Shown piece after piece: positions 3,541 to 12,996 of a stretch of 14,931 nt of DNA. The notes beneath the pieces were generated by a model, which was given only the letters and a program-made list of their open reading frames with translations, was not told the origin of the DNA and made no database searches. The stretch's first letter is position 1. Each line of letters opens with the position of its first letter. Made by a program: the position numbers and the translations under genes. Location: NCBI GenBank assembly GCA_049424145.1, contig JBMSSC010000064.1:1-14931 (forward strand), given 5' to 3'. This DNA is from Bdellovibrionia bacterium (lineage in GTDB: Bacteria > Bdellovibrionota > UBA1018).

Positions 3541-3590
3541 GAAGATCGACAAGGATCGACAAGGATCGACAAGGATGGACAAAAAGATGC
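3541..3590 (+). repeat. 10-bp tandem repeat (AAGGATCGAC consensus, about 4-5 degenerate units)
   Basis: GAAGATCGAC AAGGATCGAC AAGGATCGAC AAGGATGGAC AAAAAGATGC read directly. Confidence 0.85.
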
Positions 3591-6432: not shown

Positions 6433-7845
6433 TTAAGTTTTTTTCAAAGCAGAGACCATTTGTTGGCCCCAGTGAAGTGCACTTTGGTTTTGAACCTTCT
6501 GCTTCATGCTTTGCATGCGTTGGGATCTCTCCTGGTGTGGCATCCTGAGGGCATGGGCCATGGCATCGGCCACCTGCTCAGGGGAGTAGGGGTTGACGAT
6601 CCAGGCCTCAGTGAGTTCTTGGCAGGCACCTGTGAATTGACTCAGGATCAAAGCACCTTGATGCGGCTTCTGGCACCAAACATACTCCTTGGCCACAAGG
6701 TTCATCCCGTCATGAAGAGAGGTCACTAAGCACAGGTCGCCTAACTGGTAAAACTGCTGAAGCTGATCCCAGTTGAAGTGCTCGTTTAAGAAGTAGATCG
6801 GCTGGTACTTTCCATCGGAGGATCTAAAGCGCTCGTTCACTCTTTGGATGAGTTGCTTGAGGTGTTGTTCAAGGCTTTGATAAGCGGGTAGATGGCTTCG
6901 GCTGGGAGCTGCAATCTGAACCAGAGCAAATCGTCCTTGATAGGCAGGGTATTTTTCCAAAAACCGCTCGACGGCTTCCACCCGTTCTGGGATTCCTTTG
7001 GTGTAATCCAAGCGGTCCACTCCGACGGCTAATAGATCACAGTGAATGCCGTATTTTTTTTTCAGCTTCGAGATCTCCAGTGGGCTGAGATCGGTCACGG
7101 GCTCAGGCTGGATTCCGATCGGGAAGGCTCGAACTGAAGTGGAATGGTTCTCCCGATGAACCGAAAAGTGCTCCCAGTCCACTCGGGCCTCAAGGTAGCG
7201 ATCACAGGTGGCAAGAAAGTTATTGCAGTAGGCCTGCGTGTGAAAGCCGATTAAATCCGCTCCCAGAAGTCCACTTAAAAGTTCTTTTGCCCAAGGACAG
7301 ATTCCAAAAATCTCCGGATTGGGCCACGGAATGTGCCAAAACAATCCCACCTGCAGCTGAGTTTCAAGATGGATTTCTTTTAAGATGCGCGGGACCAGTG
7401 CGAAATGGTAGTCCTGCACCAGGATCAGAGGGTTTTGCTGAAGGTCGGTCCTACGAAGGGCTGAACTGAATTTGAAGTTAACGGTTTTGTACTGCTGCCA
7501 GTCGGAGAGTCGAAACACCGGGCGGTTGTGCGCTAAATGACAAAGAGGCCAAAGCCCTTCGTTGGAGAAGCCTGAGTAATACCCCGCTTCTTCTTGCGGA
7601 GTGAGAAACAGCCGCCTGAGTCGATAAGTGGGATCATGAGGAGGAACTGCAATCTCTCCTTTTGCATCGACTGTGAGTGGGTCAAAGGCTCCGCTTCCAT
7701 GGGCCACCCAAAGGCCTCCAGATGCTCTTAAGATGGGTTCTAAGGCGGTGACCAGTCCACTTGCCGGGCGAAGTGCTTCGTGCGCGCACGATGAGTTTTG
7801 ATGCACATAGGGTTCCCGGTTTGCAATCACGATGAGTGGATTCAT
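6433..7845 (-). CDS. otsA: trehalose-6-phosphate synthase (GT20 family)
   Basis: ANREP, SGLVTAL, YYSGFSNEGLWPLCH, VQDYHF, FWHIPWP, GVDRLDYTKGI, DGMNLVAKEY, LILSQFTGA, VNPY. The start is ATG 7845 or TTG 7866. Confidence 0.9.
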   Translation of the reverse strand: MNPLIVIANREPYVHQNSSCAHEALRPASGLVTALEPILRASGGLWVAHGSGAFDPLTVDAKGEIAVPPHDPTYRLRRLFLTPQEEAGYYSGFSNEGLWPLCHLAHNRPVFRLSDWQQYKTVNFKFSSALRRTDLQQNPLILVQDYHFALVPRILKEIHLETQLQVGLFWHIPWPNPEIFGICPWAKELLSGLLGADLIGFHTQAYCNNFLATCDRYLEARVDWEHFSVHRENHSTSVRAFPIGIQPEPVTDLSPLEISKLKKKYGIHCDLLAVGVDRLDYTKGIPERVEAVERFLEKYPAYQGRFALVQIAAPSRSHLPAYQSLEQHLKQLIQRVNERFRSSDGKYQPIYFLNEHFNWDQLQQFYQLGDLCLVTSLHDGMNLVAKEYVWCQKPHQGALILSQFTGACQELTEAWIVNPYSPEQVADAMAHALRMPHQERSQRMQSMKQKVQNQSALHWGQQMVSALKKT

Positions 7846-7954
7846 GCGCCTGGTAAGAGGTTGCAACCGTTATGCCCTAGGGAGAGGTAGGTGTTTAATG
7901 GTCTTCAGTCTTGACTTATAGAAATTAAATAAAACAAAAATTAAATAAAGTCGT

Positions 7955-7971
7955 CTGGCATTTGAGTTGCA
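7955..7971 (+). promoter_or_regulatory. putative sigma54 (-24/-12) promoter
   Basis: CTGGCATTTGAGTTGCA fits YTGGCA-N6-TTGCW with exact GG-N10-GC spacing; preceded by an AT-rich tract and followed by AGGAGG (8002-8007) and ATG 8015. Confidence 0.7.
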
Positions 7972-8014
7972 CATGAGCTGATTGTCGAACCAAATATTCT
8001 TAGGAGGATATTTA

Positions 8015-8830
8015 ATGAAATCCTTCCGGTCTCTATCAACGATTGTGAGCATGTTTGTCAGCTTACTGGCAGGGTCAAGTGCGATGGCTGGGCCACTGCC
8101 TTACGGGGGTCTTCCATACGGGGGTGTTCCATTTGGAGCAGCAGGTCCATGGGGAGGTCCAATTGGCTTAGGGCTTCCAGGTCCGTTCTTTGGCCCCATG
8201 GGGCTTCCTCCCATGGGTTTAGCGCTCAGTGTGGGGCAGCCCTTTGGTTTTTCTTCAGTGGGTCTACCCTTTGGTTTTCCTGTGGCAGGATTACCTGTGG
8301 GGATGTTGCCTGGAGTGCTTCCCGTGGGGCTTGTGCCTCCCATGATGGGGGTCCCTCCATTTGCAGTGGGCGCAGGACTTTTTTGGGGCGCAGGTTTAGG
8401 TTTATCCGGCTATTATCTCGGAGGCGGAATGATTCCTCCTCTGCCCTTCGGAGGTCCGCTTCTTGGGGGCTTAGGCCCCATTGGTTGGGGTGGTATGCCT
8501 TGGGGGCCAGGCTTCCTTCCTCCTCTGCCATTTGCAGGTCAGATGGGCAAAGGAATACTTCCTCCTCCTCCCATTGGTCCTAAGGGGATTGCAGGTCAGT
8601 TCCTCCCTCCTCCCATCGGTCCCAAAGGGGTAGCAGGCCAGTTCCTCCCTCCTCCTATCGGTCCTAAGGGGATTGCAGGTCAGTTCCTTCCTCCTCCTAT
8701 TGGTCCTAAGGGGATTGCAGGCCAAGTGCTTCCTCCTCCTATTGGTCCTAAGGGAATTGCAGGCCAGTTCTTACCTCCTCCTCTTCCTCCCGCTCCTGTT
8801 CCTCCTCCCATTTTGCCTCCTAAACCTTAA
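8015..8830 (+). CDS. secreted Gly/Pro-rich low-complexity repeat protein (271 aa), function unknown
   Basis: Strong SD AGGAGG; signal peptide MKSFRSLSTIVSMFVSLLAGSSAMA; five C-terminal PPPIGPKG(I/V)AGQ(F/V)L repeats whose DNA differences are mostly synonymous. Confidence 0.85.
   Translation: MKSFRSLSTIVSMFVSLLAGSSAMAGPLPYGGLPYGGVPFGAAGPWGGPIGLGLPGPFFGPMGLPPMGLALSVGQPFGFSSVGLPFGFPVAGLPVGMLPGVLPVGLVPPMMGVPPFAVGAGLFWGAGLGLSGYYLGGGMIPPLPFGGPLLGGLGPIGWGGMPWGPGFLPPLPFAGQMGKGILPPPPIGPKGIAGQFLPPPIGPKGVAGQFLPPPIGPKGIAGQFLPPPIGPKGIAGQVLPPPIGPKGIAGQFLPPPLPPAPVPPPILPPKP
8564..8773 (+). repeat. 42-bp coding tandem repeat x5 (PPPIGPKGIAGQFL)
   Basis: Units start at 8564, 8606, 8648, 8690 and 8732, with no spacers between them. 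Confidence 0.92.
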
Positions 8831-8931: not shown

Positions 8932-8977
8932 GAGAGAAACTCTGGCCCAAGTGCCAGAGTTTCTCTCCCTTTTCTTC
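8932..8977 (+). terminator. perfect 15-bp hairpin followed by a pyrimidine tract; probable terminator of the Gly/Pro-rich gene
   Basis: GAGAGAAACTCTGGC-CCAAGT-GCCAGAGTTTCTCTC then CCTTTTCTTC. Confidence 0.65.
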
Positions 8978-9013: not shown

Positions 9014-9841
9014 ATGTCAGAGTTTCAATTGGATGTCAGAACAGATCGAGCTCTTAAGCCCCTGAGTAGGCAAGCCTGGATTGACGCAACGGAGTTTTAC
9101 GCACTGCCGAGTCAAGAGGTTTTAAAGCAAGTCACAGATCGAGTCTCAGAGCGGGAGAATCCCTTGGTTTTATTGGATCTGGATTCGACTTTGTATGAAG
9201 TGAGACCACGTACGTATTTTATCCTCAAGGAGTGGGCTCAAACTGAGGCAGCCAAAAATCATCCTGAAGTCTGTGCTTTGATCCTCAGCATGGGTCCCCA
9301 TCAGATTGGCTACTCCATTGAAGACACCTTTGAAAACCTAGGTCTTGGATCTCCTGGACAGATCCCCTCCTCACGGATGGATTCACTTTTGGAAGTGCAG
9401 CGATTTTGGAAGTCTAGGTTTTTTCATTCTGATTATTTAAGTTATGACTTTGCCTATGACGGTGCAGCAGAGTTCGTCCGAGGCCTCCATGAGAGGGGTG
9501 CCTCGATCGTCTATCTGACGGGACGTGATGAGCCTCAGATGGGAAACGGGACTCGCTCCAATTTGATTCGGGATGGGTTTCCGTGGAGTTTGCCCAAGGT
9601 GAGTTTGATGATGAAACCCCATTTCAAGGTGGGGGACCTTGAGTTCAAACAAAATGCACTGCGATTCCTCGAGCTGCAAGGCCATTTGATTGCTTCTTTT
9701 GAGAATGAACCCTTGAACCTTCTTTCGATTCAAAAGGCCTTTCCAAGCGCCATGCACGTTTTCATGGACACGCTCTGTAGTGATCACCCGGCCCCAGTCG
9801 GTCGGGGGATTTATCGGATCACGGGATTTGTGGATTTTTAA
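9014..9841 (+). CDS. HAD-superfamily hydrolase/phosphatase
   Basis: Motif I LLDLDSTL, motif II VYLTGRD, motif III Lys (LMMKP...FK), variant motif IV SFENEPLN; cap-like insertion between motifs I and II. Confidence 0.82.
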   Translation: MSEFQLDVRTDRALKPLSRQAWIDATEFYALPSQEVLKQVTDRVSERENPLVLLDLDSTLYEVRPRTYFILKEWAQTEAAKNHPEVCALILSMGPHQIGYSIEDTFENLGLGSPGQIPSSRMDSLLEVQRFWKSRFFHSDYLSYDFAYDGAAEFVRGLHERGASIVYLTGRDEPQMGNGTRSNLIRDGFPWSLPKVSLMMKPHFKVGDLEFKQNALRFLELQGHLIASFENEPLNLLSIQKAFPSAMHVFMDTLCSDHPAPVGRGIYRITGFVDF

Positions 9842-10960: not shown

Positions 10961-11040
10961 GAAAGAAAAGTAAAAAAGAGCAAAGAAGAGCAAAGAAGGG
11001 TAAAGAAGGGTAAAGAAGGGTAAAGAAGGGTAAAGAAGGG
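10961..11040 (+). repeat. purine-rich 10-bp tandem repeat (TAAAGAAGGG x4 perfect plus 4 degenerate units)
   Basis: GAAAGAAAAG TAAAAAAGAG CAAAGAAGAG CAAAGAAGGG (TAAAGAAGGG)4, between convergent genes. Confidence 0.92.
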
Positions 11041-11564: not shown

Positions 11565-12485
11565 TCAATTGATCAAAGGTTCTATTTTTGCTTCAAAGGG
11601 GCGCTGAATCTGAAGGGCTTTGAGTTCAGGCAGTCCCAGCTCGATGGATGCCCTGATGCGATCCACCGAGTTTCCATCTAAGACTGTGGAGCGAGCAAAA
11701 GGGCCTGGGTCATCCTCAAAGTAAATGACCTCTAAGTTTTGGAGGTCCTGAGCAGCACTCCAAATGAGTCCTGCGCACATCTTGCAGGGTTTGAGAGTCG
11801 TATAGATCCGAGAGCCTGAGGGAAGCGGTTTTTTTTCCCGCAGCTGAAACTCTCGCACGAGGTTTACTTCCGCATGTAAGGTTTTGTTGTGAGCATGAGT
11901 GTTTTGAGCCATTTGAAGAATGTCCCCGGACTGAGAAACTAAGAGAGCCCCCACGGGGCGATCCGCTTGGTGTCGGGGCAGGACGACGGGCGTTGCGTCG
12001 CGCAGTCTGAGAGCAAGGGTGATGAATGGAGTGTCAGGGGACTCAGGCTCTAGAGCACGTTCCTTCTCCGGGATCACGCGGGGGAGGGATGGATTTTCTG
12101 GTTTGATCTTGGGTGCTCCAAAATCATCAGGGATTCTCTCAAAAGTGAGCTGACGGAGGATTCCGTGATCCTTGGGGATTAGGCTTGCAGTGACTCGCTT
12201 GGCCACCACCCGGATCATACCCCGACAAAACTCCGTGAGTGGGGCTGTTGTGAAAATTCGCGAGCGTAAAATGCGCTGCGACGATCCCGGGTTGAGTTGA
12301 CAGACGCCATGAATCAAACTCACCACCTCGGAGCGGGTTGGAAACCGCTGCTCTGGGCGCAGGGTGGAAAAGTACACCTTTGAGTTGAATTCTAAAAAAG
12401 CTACGTGAGCAGATCCGGGATTTCTTAAAAGAAGATCCCAGGCGATCTGCTCATCGGTGGCTTGTGGAGGGTGGGTCTCCCTCAA
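11565..12485 (-). CDS. Bd3614-family nucleic acid deaminase (zinc-dependent CDA/TadA superfamily)
   Basis: C-terminal deaminase motifs PVGALLV, NKTLHAEVNL and IYTTLKPCKMCAGLI, plus an N-terminal extra domain. Start uncertain: TTG 12485, or upstream ATG/TTG codons (12557-12578) that overlap slyD. Confidence 0.8.
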   Translation of the reverse strand: MRETHPPQATDEQIAWDLLLRNPGSAHVAFLEFNSKVYFSTLRPEQRFPTRSEVVSLIHGVCQLNPGSSQRILRSRIFTTAPLTEFCRGMIRVVAKRVTASLIPKDHGILRQLTFERIPDDFGAPKIKPENPSLPRVIPEKERALEPESPDTPFITLALRLRDATPVVLPRHQADRPVGALLVSQSGDILQMAQNTHAHNKTLHAEVNLVREFQLREKKPLPSGSRIYTTLKPCKMCAGLIWSAAQDLQNLEVIYFEDDPGPFARSTVLDGNSVDRIRASIELGLPELKALQIQRPFEAKIEPLIN

Positions 12486-12510
12486 ACGTGCAATGTTCTC
12501 TGATTGAAGA

Positions 12511-12996
12511 TTAATGAGTGTGGTGAGTGTTGGGGGTGTGGGGGTGCCCGTGTTCAATTTCCTCATCCGTGGCTTCACGTACGTCGGTGACTTCCACTTC
12601 GAAGTGCAGGGTTTGGCCTGCGAGCGGATGATTGGTGTCCACGGTCACCTCATCGCCTTGAATATCCGTAATCGTGAGGATTTCGTATCCATCATCAGTT
12701 TCCACTTCATAGCTTTCGCCTACTTCGAGTTCTTCGTCTTCAGGAAATTCATCACGGCTTAACGTGTCGGTTAATCCTTCTTCTTTCAAGCCATAGGCCT
12801 CCTCGGGAGGAATGCTCACCGTCAGGCGATCCCCTGCCGATTTGCCCTCTAAAGCTTTCTCTAAGCCCGGAATAATGGCTTCGGACCCATGGAGATAAAC
12901 CAGTGGATCATGGGCTTCCGATTGGTCTAAGACCTGCTTGGAGTCATCGCAAAGGGTGTATTGAATGGAAACAACAGAGTTTTTCGAAATTTTCAA
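12511..12996 (-). CDS. slyD: FKBP-type peptidyl-prolyl cis-trans isomerase SlyD
   Basis: VVSIQYTL, PLVYLHG...IIPGLEKALEG, IPPEEAYG, VDTNHPLAGQTLHFEVEV, REATDEEIEHGH with a short His-rich tail; TTG start with AAGGA SD. Confidence 0.94.
   Translation of the reverse strand: MKISKNSVVSIQYTLCDDSKQVLDQSEAHDPLVYLHGSEAIIPGLEKALEGKSAGDRLTVSIPPEEAYGLKEEGLTDTLSRDEFPEDEELEVGESYEVETDDGYEILTITDIQGDEVTVDTNHPLAGQTLHFEVEVTDVREATDEEIEHGHPHTPNTHHTH

Follow-up and report, generated by a model that had tools for sequence, protein, structure and literature searches.

What might a Bdellovibrionia bacterium do with a secreted protein assembled from only 13 kinds of amino acids? The gene that poses this question occupies positions 8015-8830 (forward strand) of the window, by which we mean the whole 14,931-nucleotide stretch of DNA analyzed, and belongs to a genome that we designate G000 (other G-numbers are genomes compared with it, and L-numbers are loci). 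Its 271-residue product begins with a predicted Sec-type signal peptide (residues 1-25; 8015-8089) cleaved at AMA|G, as indicated by a basic-hydrophobic-AxA pattern, by a helix spanning residues 3-20 in the AlphaFold model, and by an N-terminus common to the orthologs and kept across the family described below. The mature chain of 246 residues consists of 64 Pro, 61 Gly, 30 Leu, 16 Phe, 14 each of Ala and Ile, 13 Val, 8 Met, 7 each of Gln and Lys, and 4 each of Tyr, Trp and Ser; Asp, Glu, Arg, His, Asn, Cys and Thr are absent. Thus, the composition, predicted cleavage site and seven lysines given in a preliminary description of this DNA are confirmed. Gly and Pro together make up 51% of the mature chain, charged residues 3%, and its GRAVY is +0.5. 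The stretch free of the seven missing residue types runs to 262 residues, which is the maximum among the 4,491 mechanically delineated ORFs of G000 (the next are 129 and 48), with an expectation of about 1e-35 under the composition of the genome.

The mature chain has a bipartite layout. Residues 26-173 (8090-8533) form an uncharged Gly/Pro/aliphatic/aromatic block (GRAVY 0.79), a putative self-association region; the hydrophobic N-terminal part proposed earlier is therefore present, at 148 of the 246 residues (60%) rather than two thirds. A degenerate first Gln/Lys unit (residues 174-182; 8534-8560), resembling the repeat motif at locus L409 of genome G085, leads into five 14-residue units (8561-8770; TRF period 42, 5.4 copies, 86% matches) and then a Pro-rich tail with the last Lys and the stop codon (8771-8830). 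The preliminary description had the number of units right, as well as the single Lys and Gln in each, but not their uniformity, since an I>V or F>V replacement is present in two of them and P is the initial residue of the first. The AlphaFold monomer has a mean pLDDT of 52, with no fold and no helix other than that of the signal peptide. The target is thus predicted to be a Sec-exported, intrinsically disordered, Gly/Pro-rich protein.

An ORF of such low complexity could be an artifact of assembly or frame, and this was ruled out on three grounds. Comparison of the units with each other yields a pS of 0.42 against a pN of 0.039 (10 non-independent pairs); all 15 in-gene differences (14 positions) in contigs from two other metagenome runs, X2 and X3 (depth about 3-6, mostly from one run), are synonymous third-position changes, including those in the hydrophobic block; and the other five frames contain 5-13 stops. 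The target is a real gene under purifying selection as a protein.

Searches against Pfam, NCBIfam and the PDB returned no match, and hence none to a characterized non-structural family, the kind of match that the preliminary description regarded as telling against a structural role. A sequence search of 61 genomes recovered G000 alone, none of 8,000 candidates scored, and of 26 matches among representatives the 12 that were read are all unrelated periodic repeats. Feature scores in the ESM Atlas stayed below 0.8 for both the target and a relative with QKAG repeats, a QKAG protein used as query yielded seven weak matches, and a pattern scan of metagenomes produced 73 loci, none of them a family member. 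As sequence searches found nothing, the target was placed by its motifs, promoter and synteny. Of the 116 genomes in the order, only G000 and G005 match a DNA-level pattern of two KG[ILV]AGQ units. The G005 ortholog agrees with the target locus in its promoter, its leader, the start of its signal peptide and the HAD gene that follows, and combines a Gly/Pro/aromatic block with a run of 6-mers bearing adjacent Gln and Lys; a one-base frameshift near its start (L002:1995-2005) is either an assembly error or real. The closest ortholog, in G108, the sister of G000 on the GyrB tree, is a protein of 363 residues with 52% identity, the same promoter and gene order, and Pro-rich repeats with 11 adjacent QK pairs. 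In alignment, the 14-mer of the target corresponds to the 6-mer of its relatives with eight Pro-rich residues inserted between Gln and Lys. With its sigma-54 motif, signal peptide, Gln/Lys repeats and synteny, and with G108 and G005 as bridges, the target belongs with what we term the QK family. Blocks resembling its Gly/Pro/aromatic block recur in G108, G005, G075, G076, G009, G085 and at locus L080. G000 itself encodes a hydrophilic secreted paralog of 130 residues with Gln/Lys/Ala/Gly repeats (C10:34014-34406, reverse strand; locus L067), preceded by the sigma-54 motif of the target.

The family is phyletically narrow. At least four QKA[G/E]QK matches occur in 22 of 57 genomes of one Bdellovibrionota family (f1), whereas a sample of 343 genomes from the rest of the phylum has no such case. 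A scan of 185,579 species matched 115 loci, among which proteins combining a signal peptide with a QK array come exclusively from records titled Oligoflexia, Bacteriovoracaceae, Bdellovibrionales, Bdellovibrionia or Bdellovibrionota; one longer Holosporales chain includes a short QK-like stretch. QK arrays were found in records named UBA1018 and FG-1, and f1 is, by our own assignment, probably UBA1018. According to the accessible text of the taxonomic account, FG-1 belongs to UBA1018, for which the name Bdellonasaceae is proposed and whose uncultured, vibrioid cells are probably predatory (PMC13200544). Overall, 40 of 75 f1 genomes carry QK genes (36 by ORF reading and 4 by pattern counts), a tally in which the patterns select for Gln-Lys and may miss divergent genes; the first pattern matches in G078, G082 and G042 were spurious, with G078 and G082 positive through other loci, and G104 was scored negative. 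Four QK-family motifs have no occurrence in the literature searched, which spans few subscription journals or supplements and names the bacterial family only in a taxonomy paper; the QK-repeat proteins are apparently undescribed.

What do these proteins conserve? Their repeats are 4-, 6-, 9- or 12- to 14-mers in which a hydrophilic or hydrophobic filler varies while Gln and Lys stay (GQKA, QKAE, GQKP, GQKGLA, PFAAQKGLPPPLA). Most relatives are built of the 4-mers GQKA, QKAE and GQKP, with no Gly-X-Y period, and are small, basic and hydrophilic (GRAVY about -0.4 to -2.1); Gly-X-Y runs reach at most three triplets in 32 of 39 non-identical QK proteins. Across these 39 there are 726 Lys versus 6 Arg and 849 Gln versus 41 Asn, on a genome background of 5.3% K and 5.5% R. 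Lys directly follows Gln in 658 of 719 cases; position x of GQxA is K 446 times and never R, and both Lys codons are used in 38 of the 39 genes. This set was picked by QK content, which does not explain the dearth of Arg, since sporadic Lys-to-Arg changes would still show. In the eight hydrophobic-block members counted, Lys and Gln number 7:7, 12:12, 10:9, 8:8, 8:8, 7:8, 9:9 and 10:9, a parity to within one residue that holds even where the two are non-adjacent, as in the target and G085. With Lys and Gln kept, and the filler and Gly-X-Y period not, it appears to be the Gln and Lys side chains that matter, rather than charge or a triple helix. A role in nitrogen storage was considered and rejected, as Gln and Lys account for only 14 of the 246 mature residues of the target.

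The second shared element lies upstream. A sigma-54-type -24/-12 motif (GG-N10-GC; 7956-7971) precedes the target, is identical in G005, G108 and G110, and is kept before family genes. G000 has 13 such sites, mostly before genes for secreted proteins, versus 2 for the reversed pattern and 3, 2, 4 and 0 for wrong spacers, and it encodes rpoN and 11 GAFTGA activators. The AT-rich tract just 5' of the motif (7906-7953; 79% A+T) may be an IHF or activator region, a role that we assume from what is general for sigma-54 promoters. The leader contains a CGAACC element (7986-7991), invariant in all six aligned leaders of HAD-adjacent QK genes, and a strong ribosome-binding site, AGGAGG (8002-8007). 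Downstream, a terminator-like hairpin of 15 pairs with a T-rich tail (8932-8975), the longest of five found by a consensus scan that finds 2.5 in shuffled sequence, suggests that the target is transcribed as a single gene. Judged from sequence, then, the features common to the QK family are Gln and Lys at about 1:1 and a sigma-54 promoter.

The neighborhood is less constant. Divergent from the target is a GT20 trehalose-6-phosphate synthase-like gene (6433-7866, reverse strand; PF00982, E 8e-118), which adjoins QK genes at 9 of 48 clustered loci. Compared with its G005 counterpart, it lacks an N-terminal extension of about 266 residues, and the target locus is missing the trehalase-like GH15 gene found between the GT20 and family genes of G005. 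The 3' neighbor, a HAD-family phosphatase (9014-9841, forward strand), marks the syntenic locus, with a QK gene directly upstream in 13 of the 29 other HAD loci read; across the 75 f1 genomes its presence is not associated with that of QK genes (p 0.81). Among the clustered loci no tailoring enzyme recurs beside QK genes. An attack-phase role for sigma-54 was set aside as unsupported; attack-phase promoters are assigned to FliA in the accessible text of PMC3627812.

The sigma-54 motif also points to a candidate enzyme. A strict form of the sigma-54 motif occurs at 37 sites in 10 QK-positive genomes (control matches: 5), of which 14 precede QK genes, 6 precede a secreted protein with six cysteines, and most others precede small secreted proteins or lipoproteins. 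The gene for the 6-Cys protein (about 190 residues, six invariant Cys, no Pfam match; L314:1602-2177, L319:1568-2146 and relatives) adjoins that of a sigma-54 activator, and in 14 of the 15 genomes read the gene after the 6-Cys one encodes a lipoprotein of PF16683, the GP42 transglutaminase family. The 6-Cys gene occurs in 33 of 74 f1 genomes and nowhere else in the order; the 6-Cys/GP42 operon is absent from G000 and G005. Where relatives have that operon, G000 has a sigma-54 activator with two sigma-54-driven lipoproteins that have no assigned function (C43:14332-17470), and this activator is the likely regulator of the module.

G000 nevertheless has two PF16683 genes. One encodes a GP42-type lipoprotein (C29:12429-13805, forward strand), preceded by an overlapping secreted gene and ending in a Gly/Pro/aromatic tail like the block of the target; the other encodes a YdjM-GP42 fusion (C102:96-2393, reverse strand). 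The C29 lipoprotein scores 76.7 bits against PF16683 (cut-off 25), matches GP42 (3TW5) at a sequence E of 3e-16, and in a fold search has 3TW5 as its sole match below 0.001 (E 1.8e-13). Orthologs are found in 36 genomes at E <1e-100 and in two more in pieces, all within f1, and the lipobox and active-site cysteines are invariant in 30 of 30; no sigma-54 motif was found at this gene in G000. GP42 is a cell-wall transglutaminase of Phytophthora sojae (PF16683; PDB 3TW5; PMC4915311, PMC10318531), whose catalytic motif the accessible part of the latter review gives as Cys-His. That motif is absent from both G000 enzymes, which have Cys-Asn instead. In the C29 type, the residues are His-Cys-Asn in each of 30 orthologs, and the 13 promoter-linked lipoproteins read have Cys-Asn (10), Cys-Asp (2) or Cys-His (1). 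Cys-His forms are present in the order, with none found in G000 or G005. As the Cys-His of GP42 is mostly not kept, the transglutaminase activity of these lipoproteins stays putative. PF16683 occurs in 94 of the 116 genomes of the order, many of them without QK genes, with up to 18 matches per genome, a range far exceeding the oomycetes and Vibrio named as its holders in the accessible part of the review (PMC10318531), where no substrate is given. In the searched literature on Bdellovibrio, Myxococcus and lipoproteins, which spans few subscription journals, there is no mention of a 'transglutaminase elicitor'. As for other crosslinking enzymes, PF20085 (the Tgl family) and PF06035 have no match in G000, and the PF01186 lysyl-oxidase profile has none in G000 or in any control genome.

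Do the candidate enzyme and the QK proteins travel together? Scoring as positive any genome with either GP42 subfamily (the C29 type or the promoter-linked type, for which the 6-Cys gene stood in; in G089 the GP42 neighbor motif of this gene was not found), the 75 f1 genomes comprise 39 with both QK genes and enzyme, 1 with QK genes only, 2 with enzyme only and 33 with neither. The co-occurrence also proved predictive: reading the promoter sites uncovered QK genes in 3 of the 5 enzyme-positive genomes that had initially counted as QK-negative, compared with 1 of 34 enzyme-negative genomes scanned alike. G108, at 80% completeness, has no match to either subfamily; in general, the f1 genomes are incomplete assemblies in which repeats often break contigs. 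On the GyrB tree, which covers 69 of the 75 genomes (the six without a GyrB row being left out), the QK state changes 15 times, and a kinship-corrected test leaves five independent pairs on well-supported branches, of which 3.6 agree and none are opposite (median p 0.125), a number of pairs that makes the test underpowered. Moreover, an unrelated sigma-54 lipoprotein is found in 36 of 40 QK-positive versus 4 of 35 QK-negative genomes; as it tracks QK genes nearly as well, the whole program would seem to be gained or lost together, and the co-occurrence of QK and GP42 genes may reflect this common program rather than an enzyme-substrate pairing. Six genomes with the hydrophobic block (G000, G005, G075, G076, G009 and G108) are without the 6-Cys gene, and G085 has both; these genomes being kin, the pattern may be one of ancestry. 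Transglutaminase-like genes of PF01841 were rejected as the partner, as they show no association and are absent from G005, G075 and G076.

On balance, we favor the reading, at a rough probability of 55%, that the target is an exported, self-associating protein crosslinked through Gln and Lys by a membrane-anchored GP42-type enzyme into a coat of the cell envelope. An enhancer-binding activator would switch on a sigma-54 module of exported proteins in one phase of the life cycle or of stress; the target chain would leave through the Sec pathway; its Gly/Pro/aromatic block would bring chains together; and a membrane-anchored GP42-type enzyme, in G000 most likely that at C29:12429-13805, would join Gln to Lys between chains. 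The outcome would be an insoluble mesh in the periplasm or at the cell surface, for example the coat of a resting cell or a reinforcement of the envelope. We infer the export, association, crosslinking and phase of the target alike. A resting coat is made plausible by the neighboring trehalose genes together with the resting bdellocyst that, in the accessible text of PMC5941755, is formed by Bdellovibrio strain W. The suggestion in the preliminary description of a secreted, disordered structural polymer, possibly crosslinked through Gln and Lys, accordingly gains support from the conservation of these residues and from the promoter and distribution of the transglutaminase-family lipoproteins. 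More tentatively, as a conjecture that may well overreach, bacteria of the Bdellonasaceae/UBA1018 type could possess a covalently crosslinked layer akin to a cornified envelope, serving as cyst coat or predator armor, made within a Gram-negative envelope from fast-evolving Gln/Lys polymers by GP42-fold transglutaminases whose active site has been rearranged. On this view, the hydrophobic target would have arisen as a derived subunit capable of phase separation, and the GP42 class would find its natural substrates in the QK family.

The co-variation of the entire sigma-54 module also fits an alternative that we deem unlikely but worth weighing, namely that QK proteins are non-crosslinked periplasmic stress protectants, disordered chaperones or hydrophilins similar to Asr or LEA proteins, with the GP42-fold proteins merely co-regulated. 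The small, basic, hydrophilic character of most relatives, the trehalose synthase and trehalase-like genes adjoining the locus, and sub-threshold matches of relatives to LEA_4 (E 0.008) and the NCBIfam Asr model (E 0.19) all point this way, Asr being a periplasmic disordered chaperone according to the accessible text of PMC10746267. Like Escherichia coli Asr and group 3 LEA proteins, the hydrophilic relatives combine a signal peptide with basic Gln/Lys/Ala repeats; yet they reach at best 12.5 of the 50 bits required for Asr and 16.4 of 51 for LEA_4, and the target, which matches neither, is together with its closest orthologs hydrophobic, the opposite of a hydrophilin. A function of charge would also allow Arg, which is near zero, and the 1:1 ratio of Gln to Lys is left unexplained.

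The altered dyad of the papain-like GP42-type enzymes, which could be peptidases or amidases, makes conceivable a different, rather improbable role for the repeats as a multi-core precursor. Short signaling or prey-directed peptides would be obtained from it by a protease, either Lys-specific or of papain fold, or through acylation or deamidation by the GP42-fold enzyme. A signal peptide ahead of tandem cores is the expected layout, and there is one compositional match, below the cut-off, to the repeat RiPP precursor TigB (E 0.014). Only Gln and Lys, however, are common to the cores of different genera; purifying selection acts on the 148-residue hydrophobic block, which has no cut sites; and no tailoring enzymes recur next to QK genes. 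The preference for Lys over Arg could alternatively make the lysines acceptors for an L,D-transpeptidase, with the target a spacer tied, like Braun's lipoprotein, to the cell's own wall or that of its prey; G000 has one YkuD-family gene, and we take Ala-Gln-Lys-Ala to be reminiscent of the stem peptide of the wall, but this very doubtful scheme accounts for neither the fixed Gln partner nor the link to GP42-type proteins. Finally, the title of the preliminary description suggests a genuine triple helix of the collagen kind or an elastomer of the elastin kind. This has next to no credibility, since the 51% Gly and Pro, the continuous Gly-X-Y 6-mer of the G005 repeats and the far sub-threshold matches of one relative to Collagen (E 0.052) and another to SclB (E 1e-6) are outweighed by a target with no Pfam or NCBIfam match, at most four triplets in a row between Pro runs and the elastin words VPG 0, GVG 0 and PGV 1 times, by the absence of a triplet period from the repeats of its closest ortholog in G108, and by the fact that neither Gly-X-Y nor elastin motifs are common to the family.

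Comparison with known systems sets the crosslinked-coat reading in context. Tropoelastin and the bacterial collagen-like proteins (Scl, Bcl) are characterized by VPG-type words or by long Gly-X-Y runs and a trimerizing domain. The target shares with them a hydrophobic Gly/Pro block, a Lys-bearing block and few acidic residues, but has neither those words and runs nor such a domain, and pairs each Lys with a Gln. Loricrin, SPRR/cornifin and the cementoin domain of trappin, the Gly- or Pro-rich vertebrate substrates of transglutaminases, have regularly placed Gln and Lys; the likeness to the QK family is of composition and not homology, with one relative matching Cornifin at a sub-threshold E of 1e-4, although the proposed mechanism would resemble that of loricrin and epidermal transglutaminase. 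Another functional parallel is SafA/C30, which the accessible text of a preprint describes as Pro-rich and disordered, self-assembling and then crosslinked by Tgl (bioRxiv 10.64898/2026.02.03.703564). As in that Bacillus subtilis spore-coat system, the target would be a developmentally expressed, disordered, Pro-rich scaffold with a hydrophobic self-association region, fixed through Gln and Lys; it differs in having no sequence similarity to SafA, no Cys and no LysM domain, and in being predicted to be Sec-exported in a Gram-negative bacterium under sigma-54. The co-occurring lipoproteins, for their part, have the sequence family, fold and active-site Cys of GP42, but are bacterial lipoproteins in which Asn or Asp mostly replaces the His after Cys. 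As far as sequence and structural modeling go, the target appears to have one hallmark of transglutaminase-crosslinked structural proteins, a disordered chain with regular, conserved Gln and Lys.

Bacillus spores and Streptomyces offer the best-known bacterial examples of protein layers built by transglutaminases. The inheritance of the QK family together with transglutaminase-like enzymes suggests that f1 bacteria, too, may have a protective coat of welded proteins; if this is true, matched Gln/Lys polymers and GP42-type lipoproteins under sigma-54 would extend the principle of the crosslinked layer to a Gram-negative predator lineage, supply the GP42 family with natural substrates, point to a resting or armored stage not yet seen in this uncultured family, and provide biomaterials research with new enzyme-tag pairs and self-assembling polymers.

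Several further observations concern the same genomes. Secreted proteins of 70-90 residues with a single Cys follow the sigma-54 motif at C47:906-1184 (forward strand) in G000 and at L290, L292, L306, L315, L317, L320 and L520; possibly Bd0108-like, these small one-Cys proteins occur in QK-negative genomes too. G000 also encodes a secreted protein of 747 residues with a long low-complexity C-terminal region rich in Gly, Met and Pro (C25:11851-14094, reverse strand) and, after another sigma-54 motif, a secreted, Lys/Ala-rich, disordered protein of 87 residues with an Asr-like layout (C139:1358-1621, forward strand). Within the window, intergenic 10-bp tandem repeats are present at 3544-3582 (3.9 copies) and 10962-11040 (7.9 copies), and a Bd3614-like deaminase gene (PF14439), typical of Bdellovibrionota, lies at 11565-12578 on the reverse strand.
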